64,000 nucleotides of DNA from Candidatus Moraniibacteriota bacterium (GTDB lineage: Bacteria > Patescibacteriota > Minisyncoccia > CAIUEV01 > JAHKAQ01): contig WJJI01000014.1 of NCBI GenBank assembly GCA_014729795.1, positions 757-64,756 of the forward strand, written 5' to 3'. A program made the translations under genes and the position numbers. The notes beneath the pieces are model-generated. The model was not told the DNA's origin and made no database searches. It worked only from the letters and a program-made list of their open reading frames with translations. Positions 9,232 through 61,054 of the stretch are shown piece after piece (within the stretch, counting starts at the first letter, position 1; every line of letters starts with the position of its first letter).

Positions 9232-9241
9232 GCTTTTTTAT

Positions 9242-9952: not shown

Positions 9953-9976
9953 TTGTGTTTGTGTTTATTTTAGCAA

Positions 9977-10669: not shown

Positions 10670-10830
10670 AGATTATCATTAGTTTAAATTACGAAATTCA
10701 AGGTTTTTCCTTTAAAACCCTGCCAAAAATGGAAACGTCCTTAGTCGCAAACCCTGTATCCTAATATCATAACCTTAAATTTAAACACTTAAGCTCTTAT
10801 ATTGTAACCGATAAACAAGAACTTTCAAAA

Positions 10831-12165: not shown

Positions 12166-12196
12166 ATCAAATAATTGTTTATTGAAAAACTAATCA

Positions 12197-14734: not shown

Positions 14735-14735
14735 T

Positions 14736-15236: not shown

Positions 15237-15261
15237 TTTTAAAATCAGCGCTTACTTTATT

Positions 15262-17292
15262 TTAAAAAATACTATTATTATCAACTTTTTGCCAGTTTCG
15301 CCCGTTTTGTGAAGTGGCTGAAAAAATTGTCCACACCGCTCCGTCAAAACCCGCGTACCACATTCGATATGGCCCTCCGGCTTCGCCGGCTAAACCGTCT
15401 TGGTCTTCAGTTACAACCATTGGGCCTACTACCTGAACATTATCCCCATCTCCTCTTTCGCCTACATCCAGTACGACCTCGCCCGGAGGAAAGGAACTCG
15501 GTGTTGGAGATTGGGTGTAAAAAATACGCCACGTTGCTCCATCATACCCACTATACCACATATGATACATTTTATAAATCGGTTGACAACGTTCAATGCA
15601 GCACTGTTCATTAAACTTTCTTTCTAAAATAACCGAAGGAGCGGATACATACACGCTGTCCTTGGCGTCTTTATTGGAGTTGGGTTCTAGCGCGATTTGA
15701 TGGCTGGAGCTGTCTGACCACCACAAAGGATCAACGCTCTTGGCGTGGTATATTCTCCAGGTCGCCCCATCAAATCCACTGTACCACATATGATACATTC
15801 GAAATGTTTCAAAACAAATCTCTACATATTGGTTGCAAATACATTGCGAATCAATATCTGCCACCATAGCCGGGCTGTCAACATGAACATGGGGCTTAGA
15901 AGCTTGATTTTCGCCACTTACGTCAATTTGCAAGCGCCCTCGACTTTTGTCCCAGGTATAAGTGTCCATGCTGGTGGCTCCAAAAATGCGCCAAGCTGCC
16001 CCCGCTTGCAGAGTATAACCGCTGTAATACATAATATAATCATTTTGAACCTCTGTCTCTCCTTGCTGCTGTCGCACTTCTCTTTGAGTAAAAACCCAGG
16101 GATTAGCTGTGTGGATAAAATCCAAGAATCCTTTCGGCGAATTGGGTACGCGGCCATTGGTGCCGACCAAACTCCGCTCGGGTACGCTGTTATCAACTTT
16201 GCTTAAATTATCGGCATTGCTTGCTTCAGCCATGTAAATCCTCCAGTTTGCGGAGTTATAACCGGGATACCAAAGCTTATACTGGTTGGAGTTTTGAGGA
16301 TATATAGCAGCCGGACCATCGGGGGAATTTACGTGTTCTCCGGCGGCCAAGCCGGTTGAGCCACCCCCTACATAGGTTTGGTCGCCTTTGCCTTTTGTTC
16401 CAAGCACGATCCTCCCGCCACCGGAACTGCTGTCGCTCCGATTGATGCCGCCATCGCCTGTTTCTTCTAAATCGCCGCCATTATCCAAGCCATCAAAAGG
16501 AGATTCGGAATAATCGGCCAAAAAATCAGAAGTATCGAGCTGATTTAAATCAACCTGATTGTCCTTATCCTGCCTGTCTGCGTCCGAATCATCAAAAACA
16601 CTGTCGGTTTCGCCTGAATCATTAGCTTGGTTTGTTTCCGGCTCGGTTTCGAGAGTGTCGGAATCACCGGATTCCCGGTTTTGTCCCAATTCCGGACTCG
16701 GCTGATTGCCGGTATCTTCAGTTTGGTTTGTTTTAAGCCCGGCAAGTTCTTCAACCGCCTGTTCTTTGATTTCCCGCGCCTGGGTCAAACAAAAGACATA
16801 TTGTTCATGATCGCCCAAGTTTTCTTCGATATAATCTTGTTGAATTAGCTGTTGATCTCCGTTTTTACGATTCTCGTAATCTTCGCACCAAGATTTTGCT
16901 TCAGGATTAAGCTCGCCCAAATATTTATTGACCACCGGAGCGCCGTTTACACAAGTAACCGTCAGTCGATCTCCTTGGGAATTACAGTACATTTCTCCCG
17001 GACTTTGACTGGAGCATTCTTGGCCATGACTCATCAAAATCCAATCGCCTTCTGGTCTCATGGCGACACAATCCGGTGTAAAATCAAGGGTTTGAGCTTG
17101 ATCTTGGTTTTCTAAACCGGTTGATTCGGCTTGAGATTTTTGCGTTAATCGGGTTTGCCGCCGCGCGGTTTCAGAAACTTGAGCCAGTCCAATTAACAAA
17201 GAACCCAAAATCACTAAAATTGAGGCTACGATAAAGAAATTTTTTCTTTTATAAATAAAATTAATCAAACGATCTGAAATATTTTGGCGCAT
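15262..17292 (-). CDS. Membrane-anchored or secreted large protein with an acidic low-complexity region and five tandem beta-propeller-like (Asp-box) repeats
   Basis: N-terminal TM/signal, then a D/E/S/N/G-rich stretch, then five repeats of about 55-70 aa sharing (Y/F)xM(W)YSG(F/Y)DGAxWRI(F/Y)xAxS followed by SxDxxxW-like Asp-boxes. Repeats 3 and 4 are nearly identical. Confidence 0.6.
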   Translation of the reverse strand: MRQNISDRLINFIYKRKNFFIVASILVILGSLLIGLAQVSETARRQTRLTQKSQAESTGLENQDQAQTLDFTPDCVAMRPEGDWILMSHGQECSSQSPGEMYCNSQGDRLTVTCVNGAPVVNKYLGELNPEAKSWCEDYENRKNGDQQLIQQDYIEENLGDHEQYVFCLTQAREIKEQAVEELAGLKTNQTEDTGNQPSPELGQNRESGDSDTLETEPETNQANDSGETDSVFDDSDADRQDKDNQVDLNQLDTSDFLADYSESPFDGLDNGGDLEETGDGGINRSDSSSGGGRIVLGTKGKGDQTYVGGGSTGLAAGEHVNSPDGPAAIYPQNSNQYKLWYPGYNSANWRIYMAEASNADNLSKVDNSVPERSLVGTNGRVPNSPKGFLDFIHTANPWVFTQREVRQQQGETEVQNDYIMYYSGYTLQAGAAWRIFGATSMDTYTWDKSRGRLQIDVSGENQASKPHVHVDSPAMVADIDSQCICNQYVEICFETFRMYHMWYSGFDGATWRIYHAKSVDPLWWSDSSSHQIALEPNSNKDAKDSVYVSAPSVILERKFNEQCCIERCQPIYKMYHMWYSGYDGATWRIFYTQSPTPSSFPPGEVVLDVGERGDGDNVQVVGPMVVTEDQDGLAGEAGGPYRMWYAGFDGAVWTIFSATSQNGRNWQKVDNNSIF

Positions 17293-17614
17293 TTTGTTTT
17301 ATTGATGTTTTGTTATTTTATTTATAGCAAATTTATATCCTAGATGTAAAGGCGTTGAGTCTGAAGCCTTTATTTTTTCTTTACTTTTATGAAAAACAAT
17401 TAAAACAACCTCTTTCCCGCTTTCTTTTAAAATTTTTATCATCTCGTCTCTCTCTGTTTCACGATTTTCATTTTCAGCATTATTTGTTTTAATTTTTAAA
17501 AAAAACAACCCAAATGAACAATTCGAAACAAGGGTTTTTAAAAATATTGCATTGTTTGTTATTTATATTATCCGGATTTTTTACTATTTTATACTTTATA
17601 AGCGCGGTAACAAT

Positions 17615-18925
17615 TCAATATCTTATAAACAATGTCAAAGATAATATTATTAACAGAAAGGCTGTTGTTAATGGAATGTATTTTAAAAAAATATATTTAG
17701 CGATATTTGCTTTTTGATTTAAATAAACAAAAATAATAAATAATGGGATTAAAGTAAATAGAATATATCTAAAATCACCAACGCAAGAATAAGGATTAAA
17801 AATTCTCATTATAATTATTGAGAATAAAAATAAACAAATAAAAATTAAAAGACTTTTAATTTTATTAATACAAATTTTTTTAGATATGAATATATACAAT
17901 AAGGTTATCATATAAATTAATAATGCCAAGAAGTTAATTATTGAAATTATGGTGTGGTTTATTTTATCTCCTGGATTAAACCACTCAATACTTATGCTTG
18001 TTTTTATTAAAAAATTCCAAAAAAGTTTTGATTGTTCATTAGTATCCAAACCATTAGCTATTGGATGTTTTATAAAATTACGGAAATCAAAAACCAAATA
18101 ATTTATCGGTTCGTTTTTAAATTTTAATTCGTGAACGTTTTCTAATTCGTGAATATTTTCAATTAATGTTGTAAATTTTTTATTATCCGGGCGTATATAG
18201 TTTGGGATATAAAATAATAAAAATATCAAGAATATAATAAAAAGCGCTTTAATATTTTTTAAAACGAAAATATGTTTTTTGTTTTTCATAATAAAAATAA
18301 CTCCGATGAAAACAAAACTGACTAACCCGCTAAGTTTTGTTATTAGCGCTAAACCGGCAAACAATGAAGCTAAATATAAATATTGATTTTTTGAAAATTT
18401 ATTCCATAAAAGGGTTAAGTGTAAAGATACAATAACGAAAAAATATAATAAAAGATCATTACCAATTCTACCTGAATGTATTATTAAAGATGGCCAAAAA
18501 GAAATTAAAGCCAAAAATAGAATTAAATATTTTTTTGAGACTATGTATTGTTTTGCAATCTTTAAAGAGAAAAAAAGAACCCCAAGCATAAATAAGAGAG
18601 ATTGACATTGCAAACTCTTTAAAGCAATATCTTTATTATTATATATTAATAAGAACATTTTATATGTGATCGCAGAAATAATATAATATAGTGGAGGATG
18701 CCAACACTCCCAACATGCTTGTTTTTGTGGTAATTTATAATATTTTGAAATATATTCAATATATTCAATATGACCCCCAACGTCATGGGTATTAATTTGA
18801 TAAGGTGTCTGATTAATATAATGAATTCTGATTAAGATTGCCGATATAAAAATTAATAAAATAATTATTTTTTCTTTATAGGTAATAATTTTTTTAAGTT
18901 TGTTTATAAGTTTTGTTCGTATCAT
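17615..18925 (-). CDS. GT-C fold membrane glycosyltransferase (PMT_2/ArnT/GT39-83-like)
   Basis: Polytopic protein of 11 or more TM helices. The first extracytoplasmic loop carries DVGGHIEYIEYI…CWHPPLYY, typical of ArnT/PMT-family lipid-linked sugar transferases. The segment is extremely AT-rich. Confidence 0.5.
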   Translation of the reverse strand: MIRTKLINKLKKIITYKEKIIILLIFISAILIRIHYINQTPYQINTHDVGGHIEYIEYISKYYKLPQKQACWECWHPPLYYIISAITYKMFLLIYNNKDIALKSLQCQSLLFMLGVLFFSLKIAKQYIVSKKYLILFLALISFWPSLIIHSGRIGNDLLLYFFVIVSLHLTLLWNKFSKNQYLYLASLFAGLALITKLSGLVSFVFIGVIFIMKNKKHIFVLKNIKALFIIFLIFLLFYIPNYIRPDNKKFTTLIENIHELENVHELKFKNEPINYLVFDFRNFIKHPIANGLDTNEQSKLFWNFLIKTSISIEWFNPGDKINHTIISIINFLALLIYMITLLYIFISKKICINKIKSLLIFICLFLFSIIIMRIFNPYSCVGDFRYILFTLIPLFIIFVYLNQKANIAKYIFLKYIPLTTAFLLIILSLTLFIRY

Positions 18926-25591: not shown

Positions 25592-25998
25592 ATTTTCGGC
25601 CGGCCTAGAGGAAAGTCCGGACATAATTAAGGGGTAGTGGGTAACGCCCACCTCTTTTGAGGGCAACTTTAAAAGACGGGAAAGTGCCGCAGAGACTATA
25701 CTATCCAGTCGGCTTAAGCTGACTGGAAAAAGGTGAAAAGTAAACCGGTGTTTTAGTGGTTATTACCTTAAAGCTACGGTTTTCGCCCGCCGGCAACGGT
25801 GACGCGTGGCAAACCCTACCTTATGCAAGGCCGTGTCCGGTTCCAAGCCTGGTTAAACAGTAACGCTTTTTAACCAAGCTGTTTAGCTGGGCTGGGACCG
25901 GAAGAGCCGCTTTGAGCTTTGTGGCAACGCAAAGCCTAGATAAATAGCCACGATTCAATTTTTGAATACAGAATCCGGCTTATAGTTTTGGCCGATGT
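25592..25998 (+). ncRNA. rnpB: RNase P RNA (bacterial type A)
   Basis: P4 strands GAGGAAAGUCCGGAC and ACAGAAUCCGGCUUAU are present. P1 pairs UCGGCC at the 5' end with GGCCGA at the 3' end. GGUAACGCC (P10/11-like) and other conserved blocks are also present. Confidence 0.85.
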
Positions 25999-37871: not shown

Positions 37872-38855
37872 CTATTTATCAAAATGTTCCTTTGCTTTAG
37901 CCATGCCAACTTCACAGCGATTATTCCAACCATCAAGAAATTTATGATTTTTTAAAACACAGATTATTTCGCAATTGTTTGGACAACCCTTACATTCAAA
38001 TCCTTGAGTTCTAAATTCTACATCCTGAATTGAAAAATCAAACAATTTTTTTGTACCCTGTTCTTGAGCGATAACCGCTATCCCAAAAGCGCCCATTAGA
38101 TGACCATTTTTATCCACAATTATTTGGCTGTTCAGGCTCTTTTCAAAAGCCTTGACAACTCCGATGTTTTTACTAACTCCGCCTTGGAAAATAATAGGCG
38201 CTAGAATTTTTTTACCCTTACCCACGTTGTTTAAATAGTTATCTACCACCGCGTTGCATAATCCGGCAATAATATCATGCTTAGGGTAACCCATTTGAGC
38301 TTTATGCACCAAGTCGGATTCGGCAAAAACCGTACATCGCCCGGCAATTTTAGCTGGATTTTTGGATTTGAGAGCCAGGGAGCCAAAATCTTTAATATTA
38401 ATTTCCAGGCGTTTTGATTGAGAGGTAAGAAAAGAACCGGTACCCGCAGCGCAAAGCGTGTTCATGGCGTAGTCCGCCACAATGCCTTTATCGATTATAA
38501 TTATTTTACTGTCTTGTCCTCCAATTTCCAAAACGGTTCTAATTTTAGGGTATAGAGTCAAAGCTCCAATTGCGTGCGCGGTAATTTCATTTTTAACAAT
38601 CTCTGCCTGTAGAATAGAGCCAATCAAATTTCTCGCGGATCCTGTCGCTCCAACCCAAGTAATTCTTCCCGGTCTCTCTTGCAATTGCTCCCGAACAGTT
38701 TTTAGGACATTTTTCATGGCCTGAATCGGATCTCCTTGGGTCCAAAGATAAGCCCGGGCTAATATTTTTTTATTTTGATCAATTACCACCGCTTTGGTTG
38801 AAATCGAACCGATATCAACTCCCAAAGAATAATATTGTTTATTTTTTTGTGGCAT
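37872..38855 (-). CDS. BadF/BadG/BcrA/BcrD-type ATPase (2-hydroxyacyl-CoA dehydratase activator, HgdC/YjiL-like)
   Basis: N-terminal YSLGVDIGSISTKAVVID (ASKHA phosphate-1 motif), the CTVFAESDLVHKAQMGYPKHDIIAGLCNAVVDNYLN block, and a C-terminal CxxC pair (CKGCPNNCEIIC), as in [4Fe-4S]-bridging activases. Confidence 0.8.
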   Translation of the reverse strand: MPQKNKQYYSLGVDIGSISTKAVVIDQNKKILARAYLWTQGDPIQAMKNVLKTVREQLQERPGRITWVGATGSARNLIGSILQAEIVKNEITAHAIGALTLYPKIRTVLEIGGQDSKIIIIDKGIVADYAMNTLCAAGTGSFLTSQSKRLEINIKDFGSLALKSKNPAKIAGRCTVFAESDLVHKAQMGYPKHDIIAGLCNAVVDNYLNNVGKGKKILAPIIFQGGVSKNIGVVKAFEKSLNSQIIVDKNGHLMGAFGIAVIAQEQGTKKLFDFSIQDVEFRTQGFECKGCPNNCEIICVLKNHKFLDGWNNRCEVGMAKAKEHFDK

Positions 38856-39942
38856 TTTTTTTCATAGTTAACATGTCATAAAAAGCTTCTAATCTGGTTT
38901 GCATTCCTGTGTCTGATGTTTGGGCGTCAAAAGATAAATAAATAATCGGAAAATTGTATTTTTTGGAAATGTTTTGTAAAGCCGGCATAGCGTTAACCTC
39001 GGGGATGCAACCAAATGGTTTAATGTGGATCGCTCCATCAAAACCTTTTTTCGCCAGTTCGTTTGCCTTGCCAACGCTATCGGTACCATGTCCGCCAATA
39101 TGATATTTCAAAAAAGGTTTAGCGTGACGTAAATATTGGTTGACTTCATGATTAGGAATAATGCCGTTAAAAATTGAATGGTTCAGTAGGCCGGTTAGGG
39201 TAATAAATCGGTGCACCTCTACTCCCTTTGAAGCCAAAAATTTTTCAATATTATAATTTGAAAAAGGCTCTAACACTACGTAAAATTCTCCGACCACGCC
39301 GACTCTGAGCAAATTTTTCGGTTTCAGAATCGGTATATTTTCAAAAATTCGTAAATATTTTTTAGTAAGTTGCCGGGCTTGAGTAAAGGTTTCAGCCTGA
39401 TCTAATTTACTCAAAAAAAATTTAAATTGTTTTTCCAGTTGTCCCTTTTTTTTCTCAAAACCGATATTTTTGCGTAAAAAATCTTCAGCTTTTTCAATGC
39501 AACGACCCTTAAAATAAGCCAATAAAAAGGCCTTTAAAACTCTATAAAACGGTATTTTTGGATTGATTTTGTGAATATCCCCGATAATGTTTATTGGATT
39601 GCGTTTATTACGTAATTTAAAAAATTCAAAATCATAGCCAAGGTTTTCTAAAATGTGTTTTTGCGCCTCCCCGTAATACCCATATCGACAACCTCCACCG
39701 GCTTGTAGTAGTAGGTTAGCGCCCCGATCCAAAGCTTGAATATAGTTGCCTAAATTATACTTAAAAGGCACACAAACACTTTCGGGACTGTACCTAGATC
39801 CTAATTCAATAGTTTGCTTGGATATTGGCGGCGGAATAACAATTTCCAAATCAAGCGCTTTAAAAAAAGTCTTAAAAGTAATGTGGTAATTACCCATATG
39901 CGGAAAAGAAAGCCTGTATTGCTTGGTTTTTTTACGTTTCAT
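38839..39942 (-). CDS. DUF2229 / 2-hydroxyglutaryl-CoA dehydratase D-component (HgdB/YjiM)-like protein
   Basis: N-terminal …LGSRYSPESVCVPFKYNLGNYIQALDRGANLLLQAGGGCRYGYY matches the activase-associated HGD-D/DUF2229 pattern. The start overlaps the stop of the gene at 39957-40901 region downstream by 17 bp. Confidence 0.6.
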   Translation of the reverse strand: MKRKKTKQYRLSFPHMGNYHITFKTFFKALDLEIVIPPPISKQTIELGSRYSPESVCVPFKYNLGNYIQALDRGANLLLQAGGGCRYGYYGEAQKHILENLGYDFEFFKLRNKRNPINIIGDIHKINPKIPFYRVLKAFLLAYFKGRCIEKAEDFLRKNIGFEKKKGQLEKQFKFFLSKLDQAETFTQARQLTKKYLRIFENIPILKPKNLLRVGVVGEFYVVLEPFSNYNIEKFLASKGVEVHRFITLTGLLNHSIFNGIIPNHEVNQYLRHAKPFLKYHIGGHGTDSVGKANELAKKGFDGAIHIKPFGCIPEVNAMPALQNISKKYNFPIIYLSFDAQTSDTGMQTRLEAFYDMLTMKKNATKK

Positions 39943-39956
39943 TAATTGAGGAATCG

Positions 39957-40901
39957 TTAAGACTTATAATTCTTGGCTGATTTTTGCTGATATTCAAGGA
40001 TATCAATAAAGCTTTCAAGTCTTGTAATTAAACCCGCCTCTCCCTGGAGTTCATCAATAATTATATTAATGGATGGTATGTTTTTAATCTTTTTCTGGCA
40101 AATTTCAACCACCAAAGAGTCGGGCCCGCATGGAAAAGCCGAAACATAGATTATCCCATCAACCTTGTTTTTATATAAATCAATGGCACCAACCAGTTCT
40201 TTATTATAAGTCCAATATAAATCTTGAGATATTTTTTGCGATAGCTTCTTAACCAATTTTTTTTGAGCAATATCAGCATCAATAATAGCAATATTTTGTG
40301 ATTTCAGGTAGTCTAAAATTGTTTTGCCTGTAAAACCATCAAATAAAATATAGGGGTGAGCTACTATTAGAATTTTCTTTAATTTTTTATTCTTCAACAG
40401 TCTGGCTTGGCGCCGAATTTTTTTCTTTTGGAGATGTTTTTGTTTAAACTTTCCTTTTCGGTAAGCTCTAAATATTTTAATTGGATTTTTACAAACAGTT
40501 AAGCCCATACGTAAAAACTCCAAGGATTCTCGTCTGAATTCATTAACATCAACATTATAGTGCAGAATATTCAAATCGGGAAAAGTATTAACTGTTATGT
40601 CATATAAACCTTGAAATTTACAGCACAATTCTTCGTTTTTTTTAAAAGAGGCAATTCTTGGAATAAAAATATAATCAGCCTTGTTTTTTAAGTAATCAAC
40701 ATGGCCTAAGAAAATTTTTACCGGCAGACAACTTTCGTCAACAGCGAGGCTTGCTCCCTGCTGCAAAATTTTTTTATTAGTGGCCGGGCTGGTAACAATT
40801 TTAAAACCCAACTCCTTAAAAAAAGTATGCCATAAAACATTATATTTATAATAAAGCAATGCTCTGGGGATCCCAATCCGTTTTTCTTTGTTCATATTCA
40901 A
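39957..40901 (-). CDS. Second DUF2229/HgdB-like protein
   Basis: RIGIPRALLYYKYNVLWHTFFKELGFKIVTSPATNKKILQQGASLAVDESCLPVKIFLGHVDYL resembles the same family: conserved Cys in CLPVK, PRAL…YY. Confidence 0.55.
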   Translation of the reverse strand: MNMNKEKRIGIPRALLYYKYNVLWHTFFKELGFKIVTSPATNKKILQQGASLAVDESCLPVKIFLGHVDYLKNKADYIFIPRIASFKKNEELCCKFQGLYDITVNTFPDLNILHYNVDVNEFRRESLEFLRMGLTVCKNPIKIFRAYRKGKFKQKHLQKKKIRRQARLLKNKKLKKILIVAHPYILFDGFTGKTILDYLKSQNIAIIDADIAQKKLVKKLSQKISQDLYWTYNKELVGAIDLYKNKVDGIIYVSAFPCGPDSLVVEICQKKIKNIPSINIIIDELQGEAGLITRLESFIDILEYQQKSAKNYKS

Positions 40902-40919
40902 AATTATTTGACTCTTTAA

Positions 40920-41594
40920 TTATTCTTTTTCCCGCATTTGCCAAATTTTACGTTGAGTTCGCCAAACCACAACTATCAAACCGGCTAAAGAAGCGATTAG
41001 CACAAACGGCAAAGCACCGCCCAAATAGGTTTTACCAAAAATTATCAACAAAGTATTGATTATAATAAGCAAAATCCTGATTTCGGTTGGACCGACTTTA
41101 AAATAAGTAATTCTAAATTGATTGGTAATAGAAAATGACAAATATGAATTAACCATGTAGCCGCCAAAAATAGCCAAGATGCAAAAAAGGTAAAAATCAA
41201 AATTTCTGGGAGTAATAAAAGAATAACCAATCAAGACACTACAGATAAAAACATAGTCCAAAAAGTGATCCATGTAGTGACCCCATTTTGCTAGCCCCAT
41301 TTTTCGATATTTACCCAAAGCTCCGTCCAGAGAATCGGAAAAATACTGAAACACAATCATCAAAGAAACCCCCCATAACCAATCCAAATTTTTTCGCGAA
41401 AAAAAACTAAAAAGAATCACCAACGCGCTCCAAAGCAAAGTCAACAAAGTTAAATGGTACGACTCTAATTTTTTAGGGATTTTAGGTATTAGAAATTCAA
41501 TCAAGCGCCTTTCATGATGGCCCAAGATGGATAAACTTACCTTTTTGTCTCCATTAAACCGCTTAATATTCTTTTGTTTTATTGATTGGGCCAT
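40920..41594 (-). CDS. CDP-alcohol phosphatidyltransferase family protein
   Basis: DSLDGALGKYRKMGLAKWGHYMDHFLDYVF fits D-x2-D-G-x2-A-R…G-x3-D-x3-D. Five to six TM helices. Confidence 0.7.
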   Translation of the reverse strand: MAQSIKQKNIKRFNGDKKVSLSILGHHERRLIEFLIPKIPKKLESYHLTLLTLLWSALVILFSFFSRKNLDWLWGVSLMIVFQYFSDSLDGALGKYRKMGLAKWGHYMDHFLDYVFICSVLIGYSFITPRNFDFYLFCILAIFGGYMVNSYLSFSITNQFRITYFKVGPTEIRILLIIINTLLIIFGKTYLGGALPFVLIASLAGLIVVVWRTQRKIWQMREKE

Positions 41595-41652: not shown

Positions 41653-41738
41653 TGGTGCCGCGGGTGGGAGTCGAACCCACACGGGAAAATCCCACCAGCT
41701 CCTAAGGCTGGCGTGTCTGCCAGTTCCACCACCGCGGC
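41653..41738 (-). tRNA. tRNA-Leu(UAG), type II with long variable arm, CCA encoded
   Basis: The reverse complement is GCCGCGG…CCAGC-CUUAGGA-GCUGG…GUGGG-UUCGACU-CCCAC-CCGCGGC-ACCA. The anticodon is UAG. Confidence 0.85.
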
Positions 41739-44571: not shown

Positions 44572-46752
44572 TTATTTTTTAAAACTTATTGTTATTGTTG
44601 TCCCTTTATCAAGCTCAGTACTTTCAATATAAATCGAGGCGCCAAAATGGGCATCAATTATTTTTTTTGCTATAAACAACCCAAGTCCGGAACCGTCGGT
44701 GTAAGCATTGACCGCATTTTTGGCTCTTATAAATTTATCAAAAAGCCTGGGTATATCTTTTTTTGGAATACCAATACCTGTGTCTTGGATTTTTATTAAA
44801 ATTTTATTATCTTTTTCCTCTAGTTTTATTTTTATATACCCCTTTTTTGTGTATTGGATAGAGTTATTAACTAGATTTAATATAGCTTGTTCTAAGTATA
44901 TGGGGTTTGTCTGTATGTGAATGTTTCTTTTTGGGAGCTCTAATTTAAATTTAAGGCCTTTTAAGCTTATTTGATTTTTTTTATTTTCATATATATTTTT
45001 TAATAGTTTATTTAAGTTTACGTTGCTTTTTTTGAAGTTAAATTTTGAAGTATCCATCTCAGAGGCGTTTAAAATATCGTGAATTATTTTTGTAAGCTTT
45101 TGTGATTTAGCAAGAATTCCATTTATTAATTTTTTTTCTTGATTGCTTAGCGATCTTTTTCTAGATAAAATATCAGCCATACCTCTAATTACTGTTACCG
45201 GAGTTCTTAGTTGGTGAGAAGCTATGTTCAAAAACTCTCCTCTCATTTTAAGCAATTTCTTTAAATTAATATTTTTTTTCTTTAATTCTGTAGCTTGCTT
45301 TTTAACTCTCTTGTTCTGTTCCTGAAGTTCTTTAGTCTGGATATTGACTTTTTTCTTTAATTCTTGATTAAAATTATTAATTTTTTTATACAATAAGGCA
45401 TTATGGATTGCTGTAGAAATTTGGAGTCTAATAAATTCTAAAAAATCAATATCTTCTTTATTAAAACTACTTTTATCCCTTTTTCCGCCCAAGAACATTA
45501 ATCCAATTGTTCTCTTGTTAGCAAATAAGGGCACTAATAACTCTATAGCCTTGTTTTTATAAGGTTTAGGCAAAAATGAAACATCAATCTCTCTTTTTGA
45601 CAAAATTCTATTTTCATTATTTATTAATTTTTGTAGCTCTTTTTTAAACCCATTCTTTAATTTACCAACCATAAAACATTTTCTCGAATCACATATTTTT
45701 TTCTTTATGACTTTATTTTCATCAAATATTTCAATGTATATTTCCTCTAAATGTAATATTTTTTTAAAAGAATCCCTAATAACAAATAAAATTTCCTGTA
45801 GAGTCACGGCTTTATTTAATCTTAGTGCCACGTCTTTGTTAACTTTTTGTGGATTTAATCCTTTAAAAAAAATCCAATCTCCAAATTTTTGTATCCATTT
45901 TATTGCGGGCAAAATAATCGAACTGAATATTAATATTAATAAAAAACTTAATACATAAGATTCAATAGTGTATAAATCCCCGGTAAATTTTTTTGTTAAA
46001 TATATAAAACAGTAGAAAAATATAAAAATCATTATAGAAATAAGCATAATTCCATGAAACTTATGGAATATAAACCTTATACCGAAAAGTCTATATCTTA
46101 CTATAGAGTAATAAATAAACAATATTAATATTAACAATCCAATTCCATTTAATCTAAAAAATTCTTTAGAAACATGATTTTGAAGAAAAAAATTAAATAT
46201 TACAATAATTACTGCGCTTAAAAAGAATCCTAAAAAAATATATTTTATTTGGAGTTTTTTTATGCCTTTCTCTTTACGGTATTTATATAAAAGAGAGATA
46301 AAGCCGACTAACAAATAAATTATTATTAGGAAATAATAAAGCAAAGCATAGCTGCCTAGTTCAAATCTTAGCTTTTCGTTTAGAAAATAGATATTATTAA
46401 TAATTTTTCCATTTATAGAAAGCGAGCTCATAATCAAAGCGGGAATAATAAAAAAAATATAAGTAAGCAAGCTTTTTTTAATAGGCACAGGGAAATTTAG
46501 CAAGAATATAAAAGCGAAATAGCTAAGCAATGGAGCTAAGAAAAAATCTAATCTGAGAAAAATTTTTATTAAATTTATATCAGTGAATAAAGTCTGTAAG
46601 TAATTGAAGGAATACCAAGTTATTAAAACCAACGAAAAAATAAAAAACAAGATATTGGTCAAGTTTTTTTTATTTTTGTATGATTTGTAGCCCAAATAAA
46701 AAATCACAAAATTTATTATAACAAGAGGAATCAAATTCAATAATTTGTTCAT
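44572..46752 (-). CDS. Sensor histidine kinase with a large polytopic N-terminal membrane domain (no adjacent response regulator)
   Basis: About 10 N-terminal TM helices, a central GAF-like region, HisKA (NIASHQLRTPVTVIRGMADIL) and HATPase_c (IKIQDTGIGIPKKD…GSGLGLFIAKKII) domains. AT-rich segment. Confidence 0.75.
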   Translation of the reverse strand: MNKLLNLIPLVIINFVIFYLGYKSYKNKKNLTNILFFIFSLVLITWYSFNYLQTLFTDINLIKIFLRLDFFLAPLLSYFAFIFLLNFPVPIKKSLLTYIFFIIPALIMSSLSINGKIINNIYFLNEKLRFELGSYALLYYFLIIIYLLVGFISLLYKYRKEKGIKKLQIKYIFLGFFLSAVIIVIFNFFLQNHVSKEFFRLNGIGLLILILFIYYSIVRYRLFGIRFIFHKFHGIMLISIMIFIFFYCFIYLTKKFTGDLYTIESYVLSFLLILIFSSIILPAIKWIQKFGDWIFFKGLNPQKVNKDVALRLNKAVTLQEILFVIRDSFKKILHLEEIYIEIFDENKVIKKKICDSRKCFMVGKLKNGFKKELQKLINNENRILSKREIDVSFLPKPYKNKAIELLVPLFANKRTIGLMFLGGKRDKSSFNKEDIDFLEFIRLQISTAIHNALLYKKINNFNQELKKKVNIQTKELQEQNKRVKKQATELKKKNINLKKLLKMRGEFLNIASHQLRTPVTVIRGMADILSRKRSLSNQEKKLINGILAKSQKLTKIIHDILNASEMDTSKFNFKKSNVNLNKLLKNIYENKKNQISLKGLKFKLELPKRNIHIQTNPIYLEQAILNLVNNSIQYTKKGYIKIKLEEKDNKILIKIQDTGIGIPKKDIPRLFDKFIRAKNAVNAYTDGSGLGLFIAKKIIDAHFGASIYIESTELDKGTTITISFKK

Positions 46753-46796
46753 AAAAAAATGATTTAATATTTCGTTTCGGATCCGAAATTAGTTTT

Positions 46797-47771
46797 TTAT
46801 TTTATTGATGTTTTTTTATAATCATTATAACAGGCACATTTATATGTTTTTTTTAAAACCCCGGTTCTTCTATAGGTCTTTAAAATTTTATAAATATCTT
46901 CTGAACACTTCTCGCAATTTTTTGGAATGTCAATAGGTTTGGGATTGTCTGTAAATTCACCCAACAACAATGGCCAATTATGTTTCTGGGCCTCTTCAAT
47001 GATTTTTATTATTGTCCATAAAAAAGGCGGTTTATAGTTTCCCTCGATATATTCTGTGTACATTTTAGTGTTTTTTTGAACAAAAGCACAAGATAGGTTT
47101 ATTTCATCAACTTTTAATGAGTTTAAATACTCTATACTTTTTATAGTCTCAATATAGGCCTCTTTTTCATTTAAACCCACTGGTTTTAAAAAAACATATA
47201 CTGAAACTTTAACTCCTTGGCTCTTTAATAATTTTACAGAGCTTTCAAATTGTTTTTTAGATATTCCTTTTCTTAGTAACTTATTCCTAATATAATTATC
47301 TTGACTTTCAAATCCTAACGCTATTTTTAATTCTTTCTTTCCCAAGTTTTTTTTTGCTGTTCTGATTTTTTTTTCGTTAATATATTCACACCTTGTTTCA
47401 ATGGTTAGAGTATCTAAAAAATCATTTTTTCTAACCTCATTGTAGATATATGTCTGGAATCGTTTTGGTATTTCATTGTCATTTAAAAAACTGCCACCAT
47501 GATAAATTATTAATTCACTAGGCTTATATCTTTTTATTCTTTTTAAAGCATATTTATACAAAAATTTAAAAAACCAATCAGGGTACATTATACCGCCAAA
47601 GTTAAATTTTTTAATGTAATCATTAAAACCGCACATACTACATCCACCTGTTTTCTTCCAGTACTCGCAGCCTGCCGCGGGCAGTAATAAAGTCCAAGAG
47701 ACAACCGGTTTCTTTTTTATCACGGAATACTTTTGACCTATAAAGAAAAATAATTTATCTAAGCTGTCCAT
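46797..47771 (-). CDS. Radical-SAM-like protein with a non-canonical Cys cluster (C-x9-C-x2-C)
   Basis: LLLPAAGCEYWKKTGGCSMCGF near the N-terminus, which is a GGCxxC variant as in YhcC/TIGR01212-type radical SAM proteins. TIM-barrel-like remainder. AT-rich. Confidence 0.4.
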   Translation of the reverse strand: MDSLDKLFFFIGQKYSVIKKKPVVSWTLLLPAAGCEYWKKTGGCSMCGFNDYIKKFNFGGIMYPDWFFKFLYKYALKRIKRYKPSELIIYHGGSFLNDNEIPKRFQTYIYNEVRKNDFLDTLTIETRCEYINEKKIRTAKKNLGKKELKIALGFESQDNYIRNKLLRKGISKKQFESSVKLLKSQGVKVSVYVFLKPVGLNEKEAYIETIKSIEYLNSLKVDEINLSCAFVQKNTKMYTEYIEGNYKPPFLWTIIKIIEEAQKHNWPLLLGEFTDNPKPIDIPKNCEKCSEDIYKILKTYRRTGVLKKTYKCACYNDYKKTSIK

Positions 47772-55712: not shown

Positions 55713-57572
55713 TTATTTAATATATTTTTGTCTCAATTTAAAAACTTCTCCGTGTTCAATAAATTTATCCTCAATAGCTTGAATTTCAACTTTTTTATTA
55801 AGCCCCCTTTCTGTTAATTGGTTCAAAAAAAAGCTGCCAAAACCCCCGATTTTACTGTTTTCTTCTACCACGGTTATTTTTTTAGCCTTTTTCGCGTACT
55901 GAAAAATTTCCGGATCCAAGGGCTTTAAGAATCTAGGATTTATTATCGTAGGCAATGATTTTAAAATTCGCTTTTTTCTTAACCTTTCGATCAAAGCCAA
56001 CACCCTTGGCAATTGATTGCCCACTGCTATATATAATTGCTGATTTCCTTGATGAATTAATTCCAGCTTAAATTTTTTAACCAGTGGATTTTTGGGAGTT
56101 TTTTTAAAAATCTCAGGACAATTTTTGGGATTAAGTCTCAATGCTTCTTTGGGGTAACGAATGGCTACCGGCCCGTTAATTTCAGTTATCGCCAACTCCA
56201 GCATTCGACCCAGGTCTGCGGGACTGCGCGGCGCCAAAACGGTTAAGTTTGGTATCGGCAATAAATAGCTTAAATCAAAAACGCCATGATGAGTAGGACC
56301 GTCTTCGCCCACTAATCCAGCCCGATCAATCGTTAAAACCACCGGCAGCTTTTGCAAGCACACATCATGTAGTATTTGATCATAAGCTCGTTGCAAAAAA
56401 GTTGAATAAATTGCCACCACCGGTCGCAATCCGGCCTTAGCCAAACCAGCGGCAAAAGTAACCGCGTGACTTTCGCAAATCCCTACGTCATAAAATTGCT
56501 TTGGCCTCTGATTCGCCAGATATCCCAAACCGGTACCCGTCGCCATAGCCGCTGTGATTCCAATTATTTTAGGATTTTTCTTAGCCAGTTTTAATAATTT
56601 ATCGCTCAGGGCCTGAGTATAATTTTCTGTTGCCGGTTTTTTGTTTTTCGGCAATGAGCAGCCATTGGTAACATCAAAAGCCGAGACCCCGTGGTATTGA
56701 TCGGCGCTTTTTTCCGCCGGCTTATAGCCATGGCCTTTTTGGGTACGCGCGTGAATCAAAACCGGTCCTTTAAGTTTGTCCGCTTTTTTTAACGCTTGAC
56801 TTATTTCCGTAACAATATGACCATCAACCGGCCCCAGGTAATTAATTCCCAGCTTTTCAAAAAAAAGTCCCGGGGTCCCCACTCTTTTAATTGCTTTTTT
56901 TAAAGATTTTAATCGCCTATATGATCGTTCCTCAATACAAGACCCCAATAGGTAGTTAAGATCATTTTTAACTCTCTGATAAATTTGAGTTTTTTCAATT
57001 CTTTTAGTGTATTGAGCCAAAGCTCCAACATTTTGACTAATCGACATGCGATTATCATTGAGAACAATAATCACTTGGCTGCCCAAGTAGCCAATTTGAT
57101 TAATTGCCTCCAAAGCCAATCCGCTAGTCAAGGAACCATCTCCAATAACCGCAACCACTCGCTGAATCGTCTTTTGTTTTTTAAAAGCCTCGGCCATTCC
57201 GATAGCCGCGGAAATAGAGGTGCTGCTATGACCGGTGGCGAAAGCGTCATAAATACTTTCTTCCGGCCGAGGAAAACCGCTCAATCCCCCAATTTGTCTC
57301 AATGTGGAAAATTTTTCTCTACGTCCGGTAATTATTTTATGCACGTACGATTGATGCCCTACGTCCCAAATTAACTTATCCTTTGGACAGTCCAAAAATC
57401 GGTGCAAAGCCAAAGTAAGCTCCACCACCCCCAGGTTGGAAGCCAAATGACCCCCGGTTTGAGATATGTTATTTAATAAAAAAATCCGAATCTCTTTAGC
57501 TAATTGCTTGAGCTTTTGAGGTTTAAGCTTTTTAAGATCTTGCGGACTTTGAATTTTTTTTAACAAGGCCAT
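55713..57572 (-). CDS. dxs: 1-deoxy-D-xylulose-5-phosphate synthase
   Basis: GHQSYVHKIITGRR, the ThDP motif GDGSLTSG…NDN, and a transketolase-like C-terminus. Confidence 0.9.
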   Translation of the reverse strand: MALLKKIQSPQDLKKLKPQKLKQLAKEIRIFLLNNISQTGGHLASNLGVVELTLALHRFLDCPKDKLIWDVGHQSYVHKIITGRREKFSTLRQIGGLSGFPRPEESIYDAFATGHSSTSISAAIGMAEAFKKQKTIQRVVAVIGDGSLTSGLALEAINQIGYLGSQVIIVLNDNRMSISQNVGALAQYTKRIEKTQIYQRVKNDLNYLLGSCIEERSYRRLKSLKKAIKRVGTPGLFFEKLGINYLGPVDGHIVTEISQALKKADKLKGPVLIHARTQKGHGYKPAEKSADQYHGVSAFDVTNGCSLPKNKKPATENYTQALSDKLLKLAKKNPKIIGITAAMATGTGLGYLANQRPKQFYDVGICESHAVTFAAGLAKAGLRPVVAIYSTFLQRAYDQILHDVCLQKLPVVLTIDRAGLVGEDGPTHHGVFDLSYLLPIPNLTVLAPRSPADLGRMLELAITEINGPVAIRYPKEALRLNPKNCPEIFKKTPKNPLVKKFKLELIHQGNQQLYIAVGNQLPRVLALIERLRKKRILKSLPTIINPRFLKPLDPEIFQYAKKAKKITVVEENSKIGGFGSFFLNQLTERGLNKKVEIQAIEDKFIEHGEVFKLRQKYIK

Positions 57573-57625
57573 TTCGATTATTTAGCAATATTTCTTACGG
57601 TTTCTAAAAGCTTTTTATAGCTGCG

Positions 57626-58330
57626 CTACTGTTGAGTATTCAAAACAGCTTCAGCTATCTTTAAATCCCGAGCAAAAGTAATTTTAAAATTTAAACTACC
57701 GGTGGGCACCAGTTTTATTGGCTGGTTATTACACTTTAGCAACTCAAGCTCGTCAGTTAATTCCTGACCAAGTCGTTGAGCTCGCTCCATAGCTTTTTTT
57801 AGTTCACCAAAACGAGCGGCTTGAGGGGTTTGTGTGCGCCAAATATAATCTCTATCCAATCGCTTAATCACTGTTAAATTTTGATCCACCACGCGCAAAG
57901 TGTCAACCGATGGTTGGGCTAAGGCGCAACCATAGCCTAGCTTAACCTCTCGAATCAAAATTTTCAGTTCCTTTATTTGGAAAAAAGGATTGGCTGCGTT
58001 GTGAACCAGTACAATTTCTTGGTTGGGGATTTTTATCTCATGCAAATAATTCAAGGCATTTGCAACCGAATTCTGTCGAGTATTCCCGCCCACAATCATT
58101 GCCTTGATTTTTTGTTGAACTTTCTTGTTCAAGTGTTGCTCAATGCTGCTTTTAAACTCTTGCTTATAGTTCGGCGGAACTAAAATAATAATTTGCTTTA
58201 TGCCGGTTAAAGGCAATTTTGCCAATGAATGCACAAACAAAGGCTTACCCGCCAATTCAATCAAAGCTTTAGGCTTTTTGGCCCCCAAGCGACTTCCCTT
58301 ACCGGCAGCGCATAAAATAAAAATTGCCAT
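57626..58330 (-). CDS. ispD: 2-C-methyl-D-erythritol 4-phosphate cytidylyltransferase
   Basis: AIFILCAAGKGSRLG nucleotide-binding motif. 234 aa. Confidence 0.85.
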   Translation of the reverse strand: MAIFILCAAGKGSRLGAKKPKALIELAGKPLFVHSLAKLPLTGIKQIIILVPPNYKQEFKSSIEQHLNKKVQQKIKAMIVGGNTRQNSVANALNYLHEIKIPNQEIVLVHNAANPFFQIKELKILIREVKLGYGCALAQPSVDTLRVVDQNLTVIKRLDRDYIWRTQTPQAARFGELKKAMERAQRLGQELTDELELLKCNNQPIKLVPTGSLNFKITFARDLKIAEAVLNTQQ

Positions 58331-58409
58331 AAGAATATTTAATTAATATATAAATTACGCATTCAGAAAAATTTTATATAAAATACCAAGCGCCCAATTT
58401 AAATAATAG

Positions 58410-59015
58410 CTATTTTAGACCGGCAATCTCACGATCAGTTTGCCGTAAACGTAATTCATAAAGCATTTTTTCCAAGTTTTTCAGATTGTGCTTGGCTTGA
58501 TCAAATTTATGACGGTCAGAGCCGCGCAAATTTAATTCCAATAAAGCGTTAATAATTTGTTCGCTGATTTCGTGAAAATCCTGCAATTGATCAAGCTTTT
58601 TCAAGCTCGCCAAACGAACCGCTCTTCGATTAAGCTCGCCGGTTAAATCAGCCAAACCGCCGATCAATATTTCCGGATTACCCCGCAAAAAATCTAAAAG
58701 TTTTCTCGGGATTTCAAGCTCGCCGTTCTCAATGTAATTACAATAAAGCTCGGCTTCTACATACTCTTCCAAGGCTTCGTTGCAAAAACCTTCATATCTT
58801 AATCTTGGATTTTCTTGCGTGATGTTAATAATTTTGTTCAATAATTCTTGATTTTCCCGCAACCTTTTTCGAGCCTGTCTCGGTTTTTGATTATGCGTAA
58901 GGCTAATAGCTTTTTTTGAGTTTTTTAAAATAAGACGCGAGGCGTCAAAAACCTGATTATTTTTTCCCTCATAAGTTTGATGGTCTTTTATTAAATTAGC
59001 CAAAAGATTGATCAT
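58410..59015 (-). CDS. Hypothetical all-alpha protein with a Translin-like C-terminus
   Basis: The C-terminal …GELNRRAVRLA…HKFDQAKHNLKNLEKMLYELRLRQ parallels the Translin family C-terminal pattern (RxKYDxLKYxxKKxExVxYDLxIRG). Confidence 0.3.
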   Translation of the reverse strand: MINLLANLIKDHQTYEGKNNQVFDASRLILKNSKKAISLTHNQKPRQARKRLRENQELLNKIINITQENPRLRYEGFCNEALEEYVEAELYCNYIENGELEIPRKLLDFLRGNPEILIGGLADLTGELNRRAVRLASLKKLDQLQDFHEISEQIINALLELNLRGSDRHKFDQAKHNLKNLEKMLYELRLRQTDREIAGLK

Positions 59016-59062
59016 TTTTGTTATTTATAGATATTAATTTCTTGCTAAGGCATTTAAGTGGA

Positions 59063-59917
59063 TCATTTTTCTATTTTAGCTTGTAAAGCCTGAACAACTT
59101 TATGAATAACCGGATCCGGGATTGAAGCCCCGGTACAGACCCAAATTTTTTGATTTGGTTTGATGTTTAAGTCTTGCACCTGTTCTGGTTTGTCAATAAA
59201 ATAAGTAGCCGGGTTGTTTTTTTTACAAATTTTATATAATTCCTTGGAATTAGCGCTGAATGGCGAGCCGATCACCACCACTTGATCAGCTTGACCCGCC
59301 TTTTCTCTGGCCTGTCTTTGTCTGTGATAGGTGGCTGAACAAATAGTATTATAAATTTTTAAATCAGAAAAGTTTTGTCTTAGGAATTTTTTTATTTCTT
59401 TAAACTCAGTGATATTTCGGGTGGTTTGCGACACAAGGCCCAGTCGGGTCTCTTTATTAATGTCTTGAGCCAACTCACTAAGTTCTTTTACACTAGCAAA
59501 CACCAAAGCTTTTTTATTGATCGAGCCGTTGATAGCTCGCACCTCTGAATGAGTTTTATCTCCAAATATTAAAACCGTTCGACCCTTAAGAGCCAAAAAG
59601 CGAGCCTTGGCAATCACCCTAGAAACTTTTGGGCAAATCGCGTTTAAAACTTTTATTTTTTTTGCCTTAAGCCGCTGAATAACTTTAGGGTCAACCCCAT
59701 GAGCTGTGATTATGACCGTTCCTTGCCAAGCTTGATCAATATTATCAATTTTTTTAATACCCCATTTCTTTGTTTCTTGTATTACATGTGTATTGTGCAC
59801 CAAGTCTCCTAAAATCTGTACCGGTTTTGGATATGATTTGTAGTTTTTCTTGACCAACTGATAAGCTCGACGCACTCCGGAGCAAAAACCAATTTTACTA
59901 GAAAGTTCTATAGCCAT
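59063..59917 (-). CDS. ispH: 4-hydroxy-3-methylbut-2-enyl diphosphate reductase
   Basis: GFCSGVRRA motif and conserved Cys/His positions for the [4Fe-4S] cluster (C12, C96, C194 region). Confidence 0.85.
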   Translation of the reverse strand: MAIELSSKIGFCSGVRRAYQLVKKNYKSYPKPVQILGDLVHNTHVIQETKKWGIKKIDNIDQAWQGTVIITAHGVDPKVIQRLKAKKIKVLNAICPKVSRVIAKARFLALKGRTVLIFGDKTHSEVRAINGSINKKALVFASVKELSELAQDINKETRLGLVSQTTRNITEFKEIKKFLRQNFSDLKIYNTICSATYHRQRQAREKAGQADQVVVIGSPFSANSKELYKICKKNNPATYFIDKPEQVQDLNIKPNQKIWVCTGASIPDPVIHKVVQALQAKIEK

Positions 59918-59983
59918 AAATATTTTTGTTAAGATCTTTAATCTTTTTATTAGCGTTAATCCGTAAGATAAATATTTTTGTTA

Positions 59984-61054
59984 TCAGTATTTTCTATTCA
60001 ATACATAATCAGCCAAAGCTAATAAAAATTCTTGGGTTTTGGTTGGCAGTTTTAGAGCCTTAAGTTCTAGCTTAGCCTGCTTTATTAATGCTTGGCTTTT
60101 TGCTTCACAATCATGAAGCGCCTTGGTCGAATGCGCCAACTGCTTATAGAAATCCAACTCCTTTTGATCGGGGGTCTGTTTTCGCTGTATCATTTGCTCT
60201 AGTTTTCTTTTTTCCGCCGGCTTAGACGCGATTAACATTTTCCTGGTCAGTAAAGTTTGTTTACCTTCTTGAATATCTGATCCGATATCTTTACCCAATT
60301 CTTTTTTAGAGCTAAAAATTCCAATCAAGTCATCTTTGATCTGATAAGCCACGCCTAAATTCATAGCATAATTAGCAAGCCCTCTTTCTAGTTGTTTCTT
60401 GCTTTGTCCCAACGCCAAGCCAATCAAAAGTGGATTTTCAAACGTGTATTTAGCTGTTTTTAGCATGTAGATATTAAGGATTTGCGTTTGAGTCAGGTTT
60501 TGATCATTGACGTTTAGATCCAAAGACTCGCCAGCCAGGGTATGAAATAAAGAATCATTCATTTGTTCCAAAATCCGTTGCTTCTTGTTTGCCTCTATAT
60601 GAGCTTGGTTTACAAGTTTAATGCTTAAATTAAAAGCCAAATCCGACGAGATAAAAGCCTGAGCTTGGCCAATTCTTTCAGCGTTCAGAGCGTTTAACCT
60701 CAATCGGCTTTGGTTTTGAGCGAAAAGCCGATATAAAGTTGGCCGCCCCCTTCTTGTTTGGTCTCGATCAAACACATCATCTTGGATTATCAAAAATGCG
60801 TGAATCAATTCTATGGCCGCGGCTAAGTCATAAACTATTTCTCTTTTTACCCGGCTTTGCGCTGCTTGGGCTCCTTGCATCACTAAAGCAGCTCTAAGTC
60901 TTTTGCCGCCGTTTAAAACAAAATGGCTAAAAGCCTGGTATTGTTTTTGAAAAGCCGGATTAATTTGAGCCGCTTTCTCGCTTTCTTGGTCAAGAATATT
61001 TCCAAGGTGGTCTTCGATTTGTTTTTTTACTTGATCAAGTTTTTTTCTGAGCAT
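59984..61054 (-). CDS. Polyprenyl diphosphate synthase (trans-IPPS; FPP/GGPP/longer)
   Basis: First DDxxD motif (LIIQDDVFD). The expected second Asp-rich motif is not a clean DDxxD: the region reads YQIKDDLIG. Overlaps folD by 20 bp. Confidence 0.85.
   Translation of the reverse strand: MLRKKLDQVKKQIEDHLGNILDQESEKAAQINPAFQKQYQAFSHFVLNGGKRLRAALVMQGAQAAQSRVKREIVYDLAAAIELIHAFLIIQDDVFDRDQTRRGRPTLYRLFAQNQSRLRLNALNAERIGQAQAFISSDLAFNLSIKLVNQAHIEANKKQRILEQMNDSLFHTLAGESLDLNVNDQNLTQTQILNIYMLKTAKYTFENPLLIGLALGQSKKQLERGLANYAMNLGVAYQIKDDLIGIFSSKKELGKDIGSDIQEGKQTLLTRKMLIASKPAEKRKLEQMIQRKQTPDQKELDFYKQLAHSTKALHDCEAKSQALIKQAKLELKALKLPTKTQEFLLALADYVLNRKY

Follow-up and report, generated by a model that had tools for sequence, protein, structure and literature searches.

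What would a bacterium of the Candidate Phyla Radiation (CPR) do with an ATP-dependent activase and two paralogous DUF2229 proteins that are encoded side by side? The question is raised by a four-gene cluster at positions 37872-41594 of the window, i.e., the whole stretch of 64,000 nucleotides analysed here, which comes from a metagenome-assembled genome (MAG) of Candidatus Moranbacteria (contig WJJI01000014.1; locus tags GF332_01700 and GF332_01705). Three of the genes, encoding the activase (Act) and the two DUF2229 proteins (subunits A and B), form what we call the split cassette; the fourth encodes a CDP-alcohol phosphotransferase family membrane protein (the transferase). The module belongs to the superfamily of archerase-dependent radical enzymes, of the ATP-dependent benzoyl-CoA reductase/2-hydroxyacyl-CoA dehydratase (BCR/HAD) kind. 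It represents, here in a CPR genome, the split form of an enzyme kind that was characterised recently, and is very probably the unfused Act/Red1/Red2 member of the DUF2229 branch that also holds PlsA/PlsR and Ger. There is about an even chance that A, B and the activase together act as an ATP-driven ketyl-radical reductase that turns acyl esters of membrane lipids into ethers.

All four open reading frames (ORFs) were confirmed on the minus strand, in the order transferase, A, B, activase. The features of the cluster are listed here in the direction of transcription:

41653..41738, minus strand: tRNA-Leu(TAG), upstream boundary of the cluster (ARAGORN and Rfam RF00005)
41594..40920, minus strand: CDP-alcohol phosphotransferase family membrane protein, 224 amino acids (aa), first gene in transcription order
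40901..39957, minus strand: subunit A (Red1-type), DUF2229, 314 aa, invariant Cys58, Cys93 and Cys258
39942..38839, minus strand: subunit B (Red2/PlsR-type), divergent DUF2229 with HGD-D tail, 367 aa, invariant Cys57, Cys85 and Cys312, GGGCR motif
38855..37872, minus strand: single ASKHA-type activase ('archerase'), 327 aa, bridging-cluster Cys135 and Cys174
37914..37994, minus strand: Cys-rich tail of the activase, C288-x2-C291-x3-C295-x18-C314 (plus C299), equivalent of the Act2-Red1 linker in PlsA and Ger-like fusions

The initial annotation had described the cassette genes as co-directional, which holds, and as overlapping by 17 bp, which is true of B and the activase only, A and B being separated by 14 bp. 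Between the transferase and A there are 18 bp if A starts at its TTG codon and 24 bp if it starts at the ATG at 40895, the alternative start implied by the 312-aa GenBank protein; the 18-bp gap had been recognised before, with the transferase placed downstream, whereas it is the first and upstream gene. A scan of the cluster for promoters and terminators gave background level only, and the guanine-cytosine (GC) content of the cluster, checked as a possible signal of horizontal transfer, was unremarkable.

The profile matches of the cluster proteins lie far beyond chance. The activase matched PF01869 (E 8e-51) and TIGR00241 (199.9 bits, cut-off 125.4), in agreement with its annotation as an HgdC-type ATPase, and the C-terminal Cys cluster noted at the same time consists of C288, C291, C295, C299 and C314. 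PF09989 (DUF2229) covers A across its full length (E 9e-48, 163.2 bits, cut-off 29.4) and B in its N-terminal part (E 3.5e-12, 46.8 bits, same cut-off), so that the profile search upholds the assignment of both to DUF2229; as paralogues they share 20% identity. The HGD-D family (PF06050) was matched at profile positions 281-342 only and below its gathering score of 28.4 bits, with 26.9 bits for B and 19.7 bits for A, and no NCBIfam dehydratase or reductase model matches either protein. The transferase matched PF01066 with 31.8 bits (cut-off 22).

In the Protein Data Bank (PDB) the closest sequence matches of the activase are MbdQ (E 9e-44), HgdC (E 7e-42) and HadI (E 1.4e-36), the chains of which comprise only 269-276 residues. 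A sequence-profile search of A against the PDB gave one marginal C-terminal match (E 0.005) and structure prediction was therefore needed. The AlphaFold2 models reached a predicted local distance difference test (pLDDT) score of 89.4 for A and 80.5 for B. The 17 best Foldseek matches of B were all HadBC, BzdNO, the double-cubane cluster protein (DCCP) or MbdON (E 1.5e-9 to 1.2e-5), and DCCP was among the top structural matches; in these matches the identity of A and B to HadBC/BzdNO is about 11-19%, and a Cys of HadC and one of DCCP line up with the third Cys of A. Judged from the models, both catalytic subunits fold like HadBC, BzdNO and DCCP.

Relationship to PlsA/PlsR and Ger

The combination of BcrAD_BadFG, DUF2229 and an HGD-D tail is the domain set of PlsA/PlsR and Ger, anaerobic enzymes by which ester lipids become ether lipids, with the architecture 'BBD...' (PMC13159169, PMC9702350, PMC8788747). 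We concatenated activase, A and B (Act+A+B) and searched the resulting sequence against a collection of 5.8 billion proteins. The top 120 matches were all proteins of about 1400 aa that are collinear with 98-99% of the query, with about 31% identity (Act1 at 1-265, Act2 plus Cys linker at 316-640, an A-like region at 665-984 and a B-like region at 1000-1388). One of these matches is from Thermodesulfobacterium geofontis, for which a modified PlsA (Ger-type) homologue has been reported (PMC8788747). Against a fused reference protein (P0227) the activase scored 288 bits, A 118 bits and B 47+19 bits. The collinear organisation Act - Cys linker - Red1 - Red2 is thus found in the split cassette, with the genomic gene order permuted to A-B-Act, and its stoichiometry matches that of PlsA/PlsR/Ger: one activase (presumably a homodimer), one Red1-type and one Red2-type subunit. 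The description of the module as a functionally uncharacterised system is outdated, since it is an unfused relative of PlsA/PlsR and Ger.

Ger (glycerol ester reductase, or 'modified PlsA') is represented, e.g., by Thermotoga maritima Tmari_0479 and D. alkenivorans SHJ90043; our comparison was made with the T. geofontis-type homologue, known by name from PMC8788747. The Ger-like fusions are the best-scoring relatives of a characterised type. They share with the split cassette the domain set and its order, an identical linker motif and the same three Cys in each reductase domain, and differ from it in being one polypeptide with two activase domains instead of three genes with one activase.

The PlsA/PlsR plasmalogen synthase of Clostridium perfringens (Q8XL48/Q8XL47) was reportedly described by Jackson et al. 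in 2021. To obtain a PlsA/PlsR reference, we searched DNA for exact matches of the forward primer used to clone from C. perfringens (PMC12838417, Table S6). The search led to a two-gene operon of 4,199 bp, the published fragment size, in Clostridium sp. LIBA-8841 (locus L008); the reverse primer has more than 3 mismatches in this operon, which is therefore the orthologue in a relative of C. perfringens. Against this reference, the activase is 34% identical to PlsA Act2 including the linker (E 9e-47), A is 27% identical to PlsA Red1 (E 2e-16) and B is 20% identical to PlsR (E 2e-9). Each component thus has a single counterpart (Act in PlsA Act2 plus linker, A in PlsA Red1, B in PlsR), and in both systems a gene of its own encodes the second reductase subunit. 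PlsA itself consists of two fused activase domains and Red1, and its identity to the split cassette is lower than that of the Ger-like proteins.

The Cys ligands were examined in both subunits and three invariant Cys are kept in each: C58, C93 and C258 in 30 A sequences, and C57, C85 and C312 in B and 25 fused proteins (all Cys are 58, 93, 94, 137, 258 and 268 in A, and 57, 85, 148 and 312 in B). All six are also kept in the fused proteins and in PlsA/PlsR, as are the A motifs C58-x3-K62-x3-G66-H67 and F-x-C-G-x-D and the B motif GGGCR; other conserved residues are K62, G66, H67, G259 and D261 in A, and G83, R86, G218 and E219 in B. From this pattern the three Cys of each subunit are predicted to hold a [4Fe-4S] cluster with one open iron. 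Around the second Cys the split clade has C-[CT]-K-F-x-A-L-Y-D, whereas the fused proteins and PlsA have C-P-x-V-x-x-P. In the activase, C135 and C174 (CAAGTG and CTVFAE) align with the bridging-cluster Cys of MbdQ. All 39 complete split-family activases have the tail C-x2-C-x3-C-x18-C, which matches the consensus FECKGCPNxCEI...RCE of the fused proteins and aligns with KCGLCTNRC...RCE of the clostridial PlsA linker.

A neighbour-joining analysis, from which the following clade identities and bootstrap values are taken, resolved two ancient paralogue groups, A/Red1/PlsA-Red1 and B/Red2/PlsR. The split proteins were monophyletic in both groups (bootstrap 100/100) and stood outside the fused and PlsA groups. 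In the B-type tree a grouping of fused proteins with PlsR was favoured (support 88), whereas in the A-type tree the corresponding grouping of fused proteins with PlsA received 60 (versus 38), too little to settle the order of the three clades. Identities were 29% between A and Ger-like Red1, 25% between A and PlsA Red1 and 27% between Ger-like Red1 and PlsA Red1; the corresponding values were 25% for B and Ger-like Red2, 18% for B and PlsR and 21% for Ger-like Red2 and PlsR. By these identities, the split clade is about as distant from Ger-like proteins and from PlsA/PlsR as those two are from each other.

Distribution and gene neighbourhood

A library of 1.84 billion representative sequences (clusters at 50% identity) was searched for the split family, with 2,667 matches at E<=1e-3 and 453 clusters at E<=1e-30. 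Most of the matches are 300-340 aa long. CPR sequences (Moran-, Staskawicz- and Berkelbacteria, Paceibacterota) are intermixed with those of Firmicutes (Desulfitobacterium, Oxobacter, Clostridium) at about 50-55% identity, which implies lateral exchange. Among the library matches there are also a few proteins of 670-765 aa (P0393, P0395, P0413, P0415, P0429, P0447, P0465 and P0470) in which several stretches are similar to A; they look like A-B fusions that lack an activase, intermediate between the split and the fully fused forms.

The gene neighbourhood was studied in a sample of 89 loci of the split family. A, B and the activase are consecutive in 42 of them, the genes typically overlapping, and in another 31 (truncated contigs counted) A and B have no adjacent activase; in the related loci A and B are always encoded together. 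None of the neighbours of the cluster in the window recurs in related loci. A-B-activase is a self-contained, context-independent cassette in CPR bacteria and Firmicutes. Such independence fits PlsAR and Ger, because either of them alone suffices for the formation of ether lipids in Escherichia coli (PMC13159169, PMC12838417).

The transferase belongs to a family of about 220 aa with homologues at 52-62% identity in CPR bacteria, DPANN archaea (Woesearchaeota), Thermoproteota and Planctomycetota. CDP-alcohol phosphatidyltransferases have the signature DG-x2-AR-x8-G-x3-D-x3-D. The transferase carries the variant DG-AL-GK-x9-G-x3-D-x3-D, and the consensus of its family is DxxDGxxG[RK]-x9-G-x3-D-x3-D, in which G[RK] replaces AR and the spacer has one extra residue. 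The NCBIfam models for archaetidylinositol-phosphate synthase and phosphatidylinositol-phosphate synthase gave 36.7 bits (cut-off 180) and 18.7 bits (cut-off 170), respectively, both far short of the equivalog threshold. The family looks like a lipid head-group enzyme that was transferred across domains.

In the Moranbacterium the transferase is probably co-transcribed with the cassette, as a lineage-specific arrangement, because the gap is 18-24 bp and no terminator-like site lies between the transferase and A. No CDP-alcohol transferase was found in the 89 related loci, by phmmer, by a hidden Markov model of the family (E<=10) or by the generic signature. Likewise, neither a DUF2229 nor an activase gene lies beside the transferase homologues (56-60% identity) at three loci, one each from Magasanikbacteria, a DPANN-like contig and Parcubacteria. 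The adjacency of the transferase, from which a role in lipid or head-group chemistry had initially been argued, is thus absent from the related loci sampled. A lipid role is plausible by homology, on which the idea rests; the gene neighbourhood gives it no support, because the transferase linkage is not conserved (0 of 89 loci).

Some other neighbours were observed in subsets of the related loci. In four loci (L005 at 5494-5916, L006, L011 at 7455-7877 and L013 at 130-552; at least two from a Staskawiczbacteria MAG) a predicted membrane protein of 140 aa with a His-rich stretch (HIHHW...AHDIYDY) is encoded directly upstream of A; it matches no Pfam family, and the window encodes no homologue of it. 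In loci L049, L051, L053 and L056, which are extensively syntenic and may not be independent, a DUF212/divergent PAP2 family protein (E 8e-45) is encoded just past the activase and convergent to the cassette. PAP2 enzymes are often lipid phosphatases. Among the 31 loci without an adjacent activase is a low-GC Firmicute lineage (L060, L064, L069, L071, L074, L084, L087 and L090) in which the activase must be encoded elsewhere or borrowed; its A-B pair has arginyl-tRNA synthetase plus a small acidic protein on one side and, on the other, following A-B, two VUT-family (PF02592-like) membrane proteins plus a protein read from its sequence as LexA-like.

Candidate function of the split cassette

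CPR bacteria are thought to lack lipid synthesis and to depend on lipids scavenged from a host. In such a host a lipid ester reductase would be expected to remodel pre-formed lipids. A mechanism can be modelled on HgdC/HadI-HadBC and on the scheme proposed for PlsAR. The activase would form a homodimer around a [4Fe-4S] cluster held by Cys135 and Cys174, and a ferredoxin or flavodoxin would reduce it. ATP hydrolysis by the activase would then drive a low-potential electron into the A/B heterodimer, each subunit of which would carry a [4Fe-4S] cluster on three Cys with one iron left open. There the electron would turn the carbonyl of a bound ester into a ketyl radical. The most probable ester is the one that holds the sn-1 acyl chain of a membrane glycerolipid; its reduction and dehydration would yield a vinyl ether (plasmalogen) or an alkyl ether. 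It counts for lipids as substrate that a CPR genome has no obvious pathway of CoA-ester fermentation in which such an enzyme could serve; genes of this kind were not found in the window, including no CoA-transferase or 2-hydroxyacid dehydrogenase gene.

Several points weigh against lipid ester reduction. The split proteins form a clade of their own (bootstrap 100) that is not nested among the verified enzymes, all of which fall outside it, and their identity is just 25-29% with Ger-like domains and 18-25% with PlsA/PlsR. The cassette has a single activase gene of 327 aa and no tandem activase pair, whereas tandem activase domains (BB) are said to be conserved in all alkyl-ether producers (PMC13159169); by analogy with HgdC and HadI, a homodimer could replace the tandem pair. 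The linkage of transferase and cassette is unique to the Moranbacteria contig, and when 111 flanking proteins were classified by Pfam, no family was represented by more than 4 of them and no lipid gene recurred. Bacillota are reported to carry PlsA homologues without an activation domain beside PlsA/Ger, of which it is 'unclear which role' they have (PMC13274423), and this co-occurrence hints at a non-redundant function. Furthermore, the lipidome of a CPR-rich fraction below 0.2 µm was without bacterial ether lipids (bioRxiv 10.1101/465690), and vinyl-ether and alkyl-ether products are indistinguishable from sequence (PMC11868695).

Some of these points fit an alternative that we regard as possible, with clearly less than an even chance: the cassette may be a distinct paralogous branch of archerase-dependent radical enzymes, the substrate of which would be something other than a glycerolipid ester or classical CoA thioester (e.g., another carbonyl or ester metabolite, or a cell-envelope component). 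The separate clade, fully supported and equal in rank to Ger-like proteins and PlsA, the coexistence with PlsA/Ger in Bacillota, the differing motif around the second Cys, the absence of lipid-gene neighbours and the large diversification of the family (453 clusters, including the A-B fusions) all agree with a distinct branch, whereas the cassette has the family-specific Cys linker and many non-Cys residues of the active region in common with PlsA and Ger, lipid ester reduction is the sole experimentally defined type of function in the DUF2229 branch, and very few candidate pathways in CPR bacteria would need such chemistry. If the cassette does reduce lipid esters, both it and the transferase would act on membrane lipids, and their position on one strand, with a short gap and no terminator-like site between them, would also suit one dedicated pathway in which ether-lipid formation is coupled to head-group attachment; we consider this coupling unlikely, given that no related locus has a CDP-alcohol transferase, that the three loci of transferase homologues lack the cassette and that the transferase family is common on its own in CPR and DPANN.

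Two further alternatives follow from better-known members of the superfamily. It is very unlikely that A and B act on a CoA thioester as a 2-hydroxyacyl-CoA dehydratase or an aryl-CoA reductase of the HgdAB, HadBC or Bcr-like kind. The superfamily fold is the same, MbdQ, HgdC and HadI are the closest PDB relatives of the activase, and HadBC/HadI and HgdAB/HgdC follow the same logic of a homodimeric ASKHA activase and a heterodimer with a 3-Cys [4Fe-4S] site in each subunit (PMC7317905). Two differing subunits with three Cys each are also the pattern of A and B, and in Desulfitobacterium dehalogenans the cassette lies near genes for an iron-containing alcohol dehydrogenase, thiolase and acetyl-CoA hydrolase/transferase. 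These neighbours are, however, not kept elsewhere, the identity to HadBC/BzdNO is low, the sub-threshold HGD-D matches comprise the last ~60 residues only, NCBIfam dehydratase and reductase models fail to match, the window offers no context of a CoA-ester pathway, and HadI and HgdC lack the extra Cys-rich tail of the split-cassette activase. The view of the initial annotation that this is no classical 2-hydroxyacyl-CoA dehydratase is therefore retained. Its label 'YjiL/YjiM-type' is not, and a double-cubane cluster protein system reducing small molecules is the most improbable of the readings considered here. YjiL/YjiM of E. coli and DCCP/DCCP-R of C. hydrogenoformans are activase-dependent Fe-S reductases of the same superfamily, but DCCP and YjiM are homodimers of a single subunit type, the 7-Cys motif of which is CX19CX18-19CX29CX166-170CX32-34CX32C; six Cys of each chain serve as ligands, and the cluster is of the [8Fe-9S] type (PMC7317905). 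Neither A nor B has this motif; each has three invariant Cys, and two different subunits are encoded, always together. The labels 'YjiL/YjiM-type' and 'HAD' were both rejected on the Cys pattern, the two subunits, the sub-threshold HGD-D matches and the absence of a matching NCBIfam dehydratase model.

Returning to lipid ester reduction, a more speculative extension, which we hold to be possible but doubtful, is that the split cassette is a portable unit exchanged between CPR bacteria and anaerobic Firmicutes that turns scavenged diacyl lipids into ether lipids. In the Moranbacterium it would be co-expressed with the CDP-alcohol phosphotransferase as a minimal 'salvage and remodel' pathway, and the split clade would add a third functional lineage to PlsAR and Ger, from which it might differ in regio- or product specificity. 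Should the split cassette make ether lipids, a survey restricted to long fused PlsA/Ger proteins would overlook an entire clade of producers, which comprises at least 453 clusters (50% identity, E<=1e-30). The Ger survey demanded at least 30% query coverage (PMC13159169), of which split proteins of about 310 aa would probably fall short. Ether-lipid production by the cassette would also bear on the reading of ether-lipid biomarkers in anoxic settings, and CPR bacteria would gain a defined route to modify scavenged membranes. If the cassette does otherwise, the substrates of ATP-driven ketyl-radical enzymes would include a further, new class. In both cases, a minimal system of three small genes is handier for biochemistry than a fusion of 1400 residues.

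Other features of the window

A cluster of isoprenoid genes at 55713-61054 on the minus strand comprises 1-deoxy-D-xylulose 5-phosphate synthase (55713-57572), IspD (57626-58330), a Translin-family protein (58410-59015), IspH/LytB (59063-59917) and a trans-polyprenyl synthetase (59984-61054), followed by FolD. The cluster shows a capacity for the methylerythritol phosphate pathway in a CPR genome; the Translin-like gene within it is unusual.

At 7405-18925, on the minus strand, a TraG/VirD4-like P-loop ATPase (7405-9231) lies beside four ORFs of 436-845 aa without a Pfam match; the region may represent an island of the conjugation or secretion type, or surface machinery specific to CPR bacteria. 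The GC content drops to 0.29 at 18-20 kb of the window. It is lowest, at 0.27-0.29, at 44572-47771 (minus strand), where a multi-pass membrane histidine kinase of 726 aa, called a kinase from its sequence, is followed by a weakly radical-SAM-like protein (PF04055 at 26.5 bits, under the cut-off of 29.5). A bacterial class A RNase P RNA is encoded at 25597-25998 on the plus strand (146 bits).

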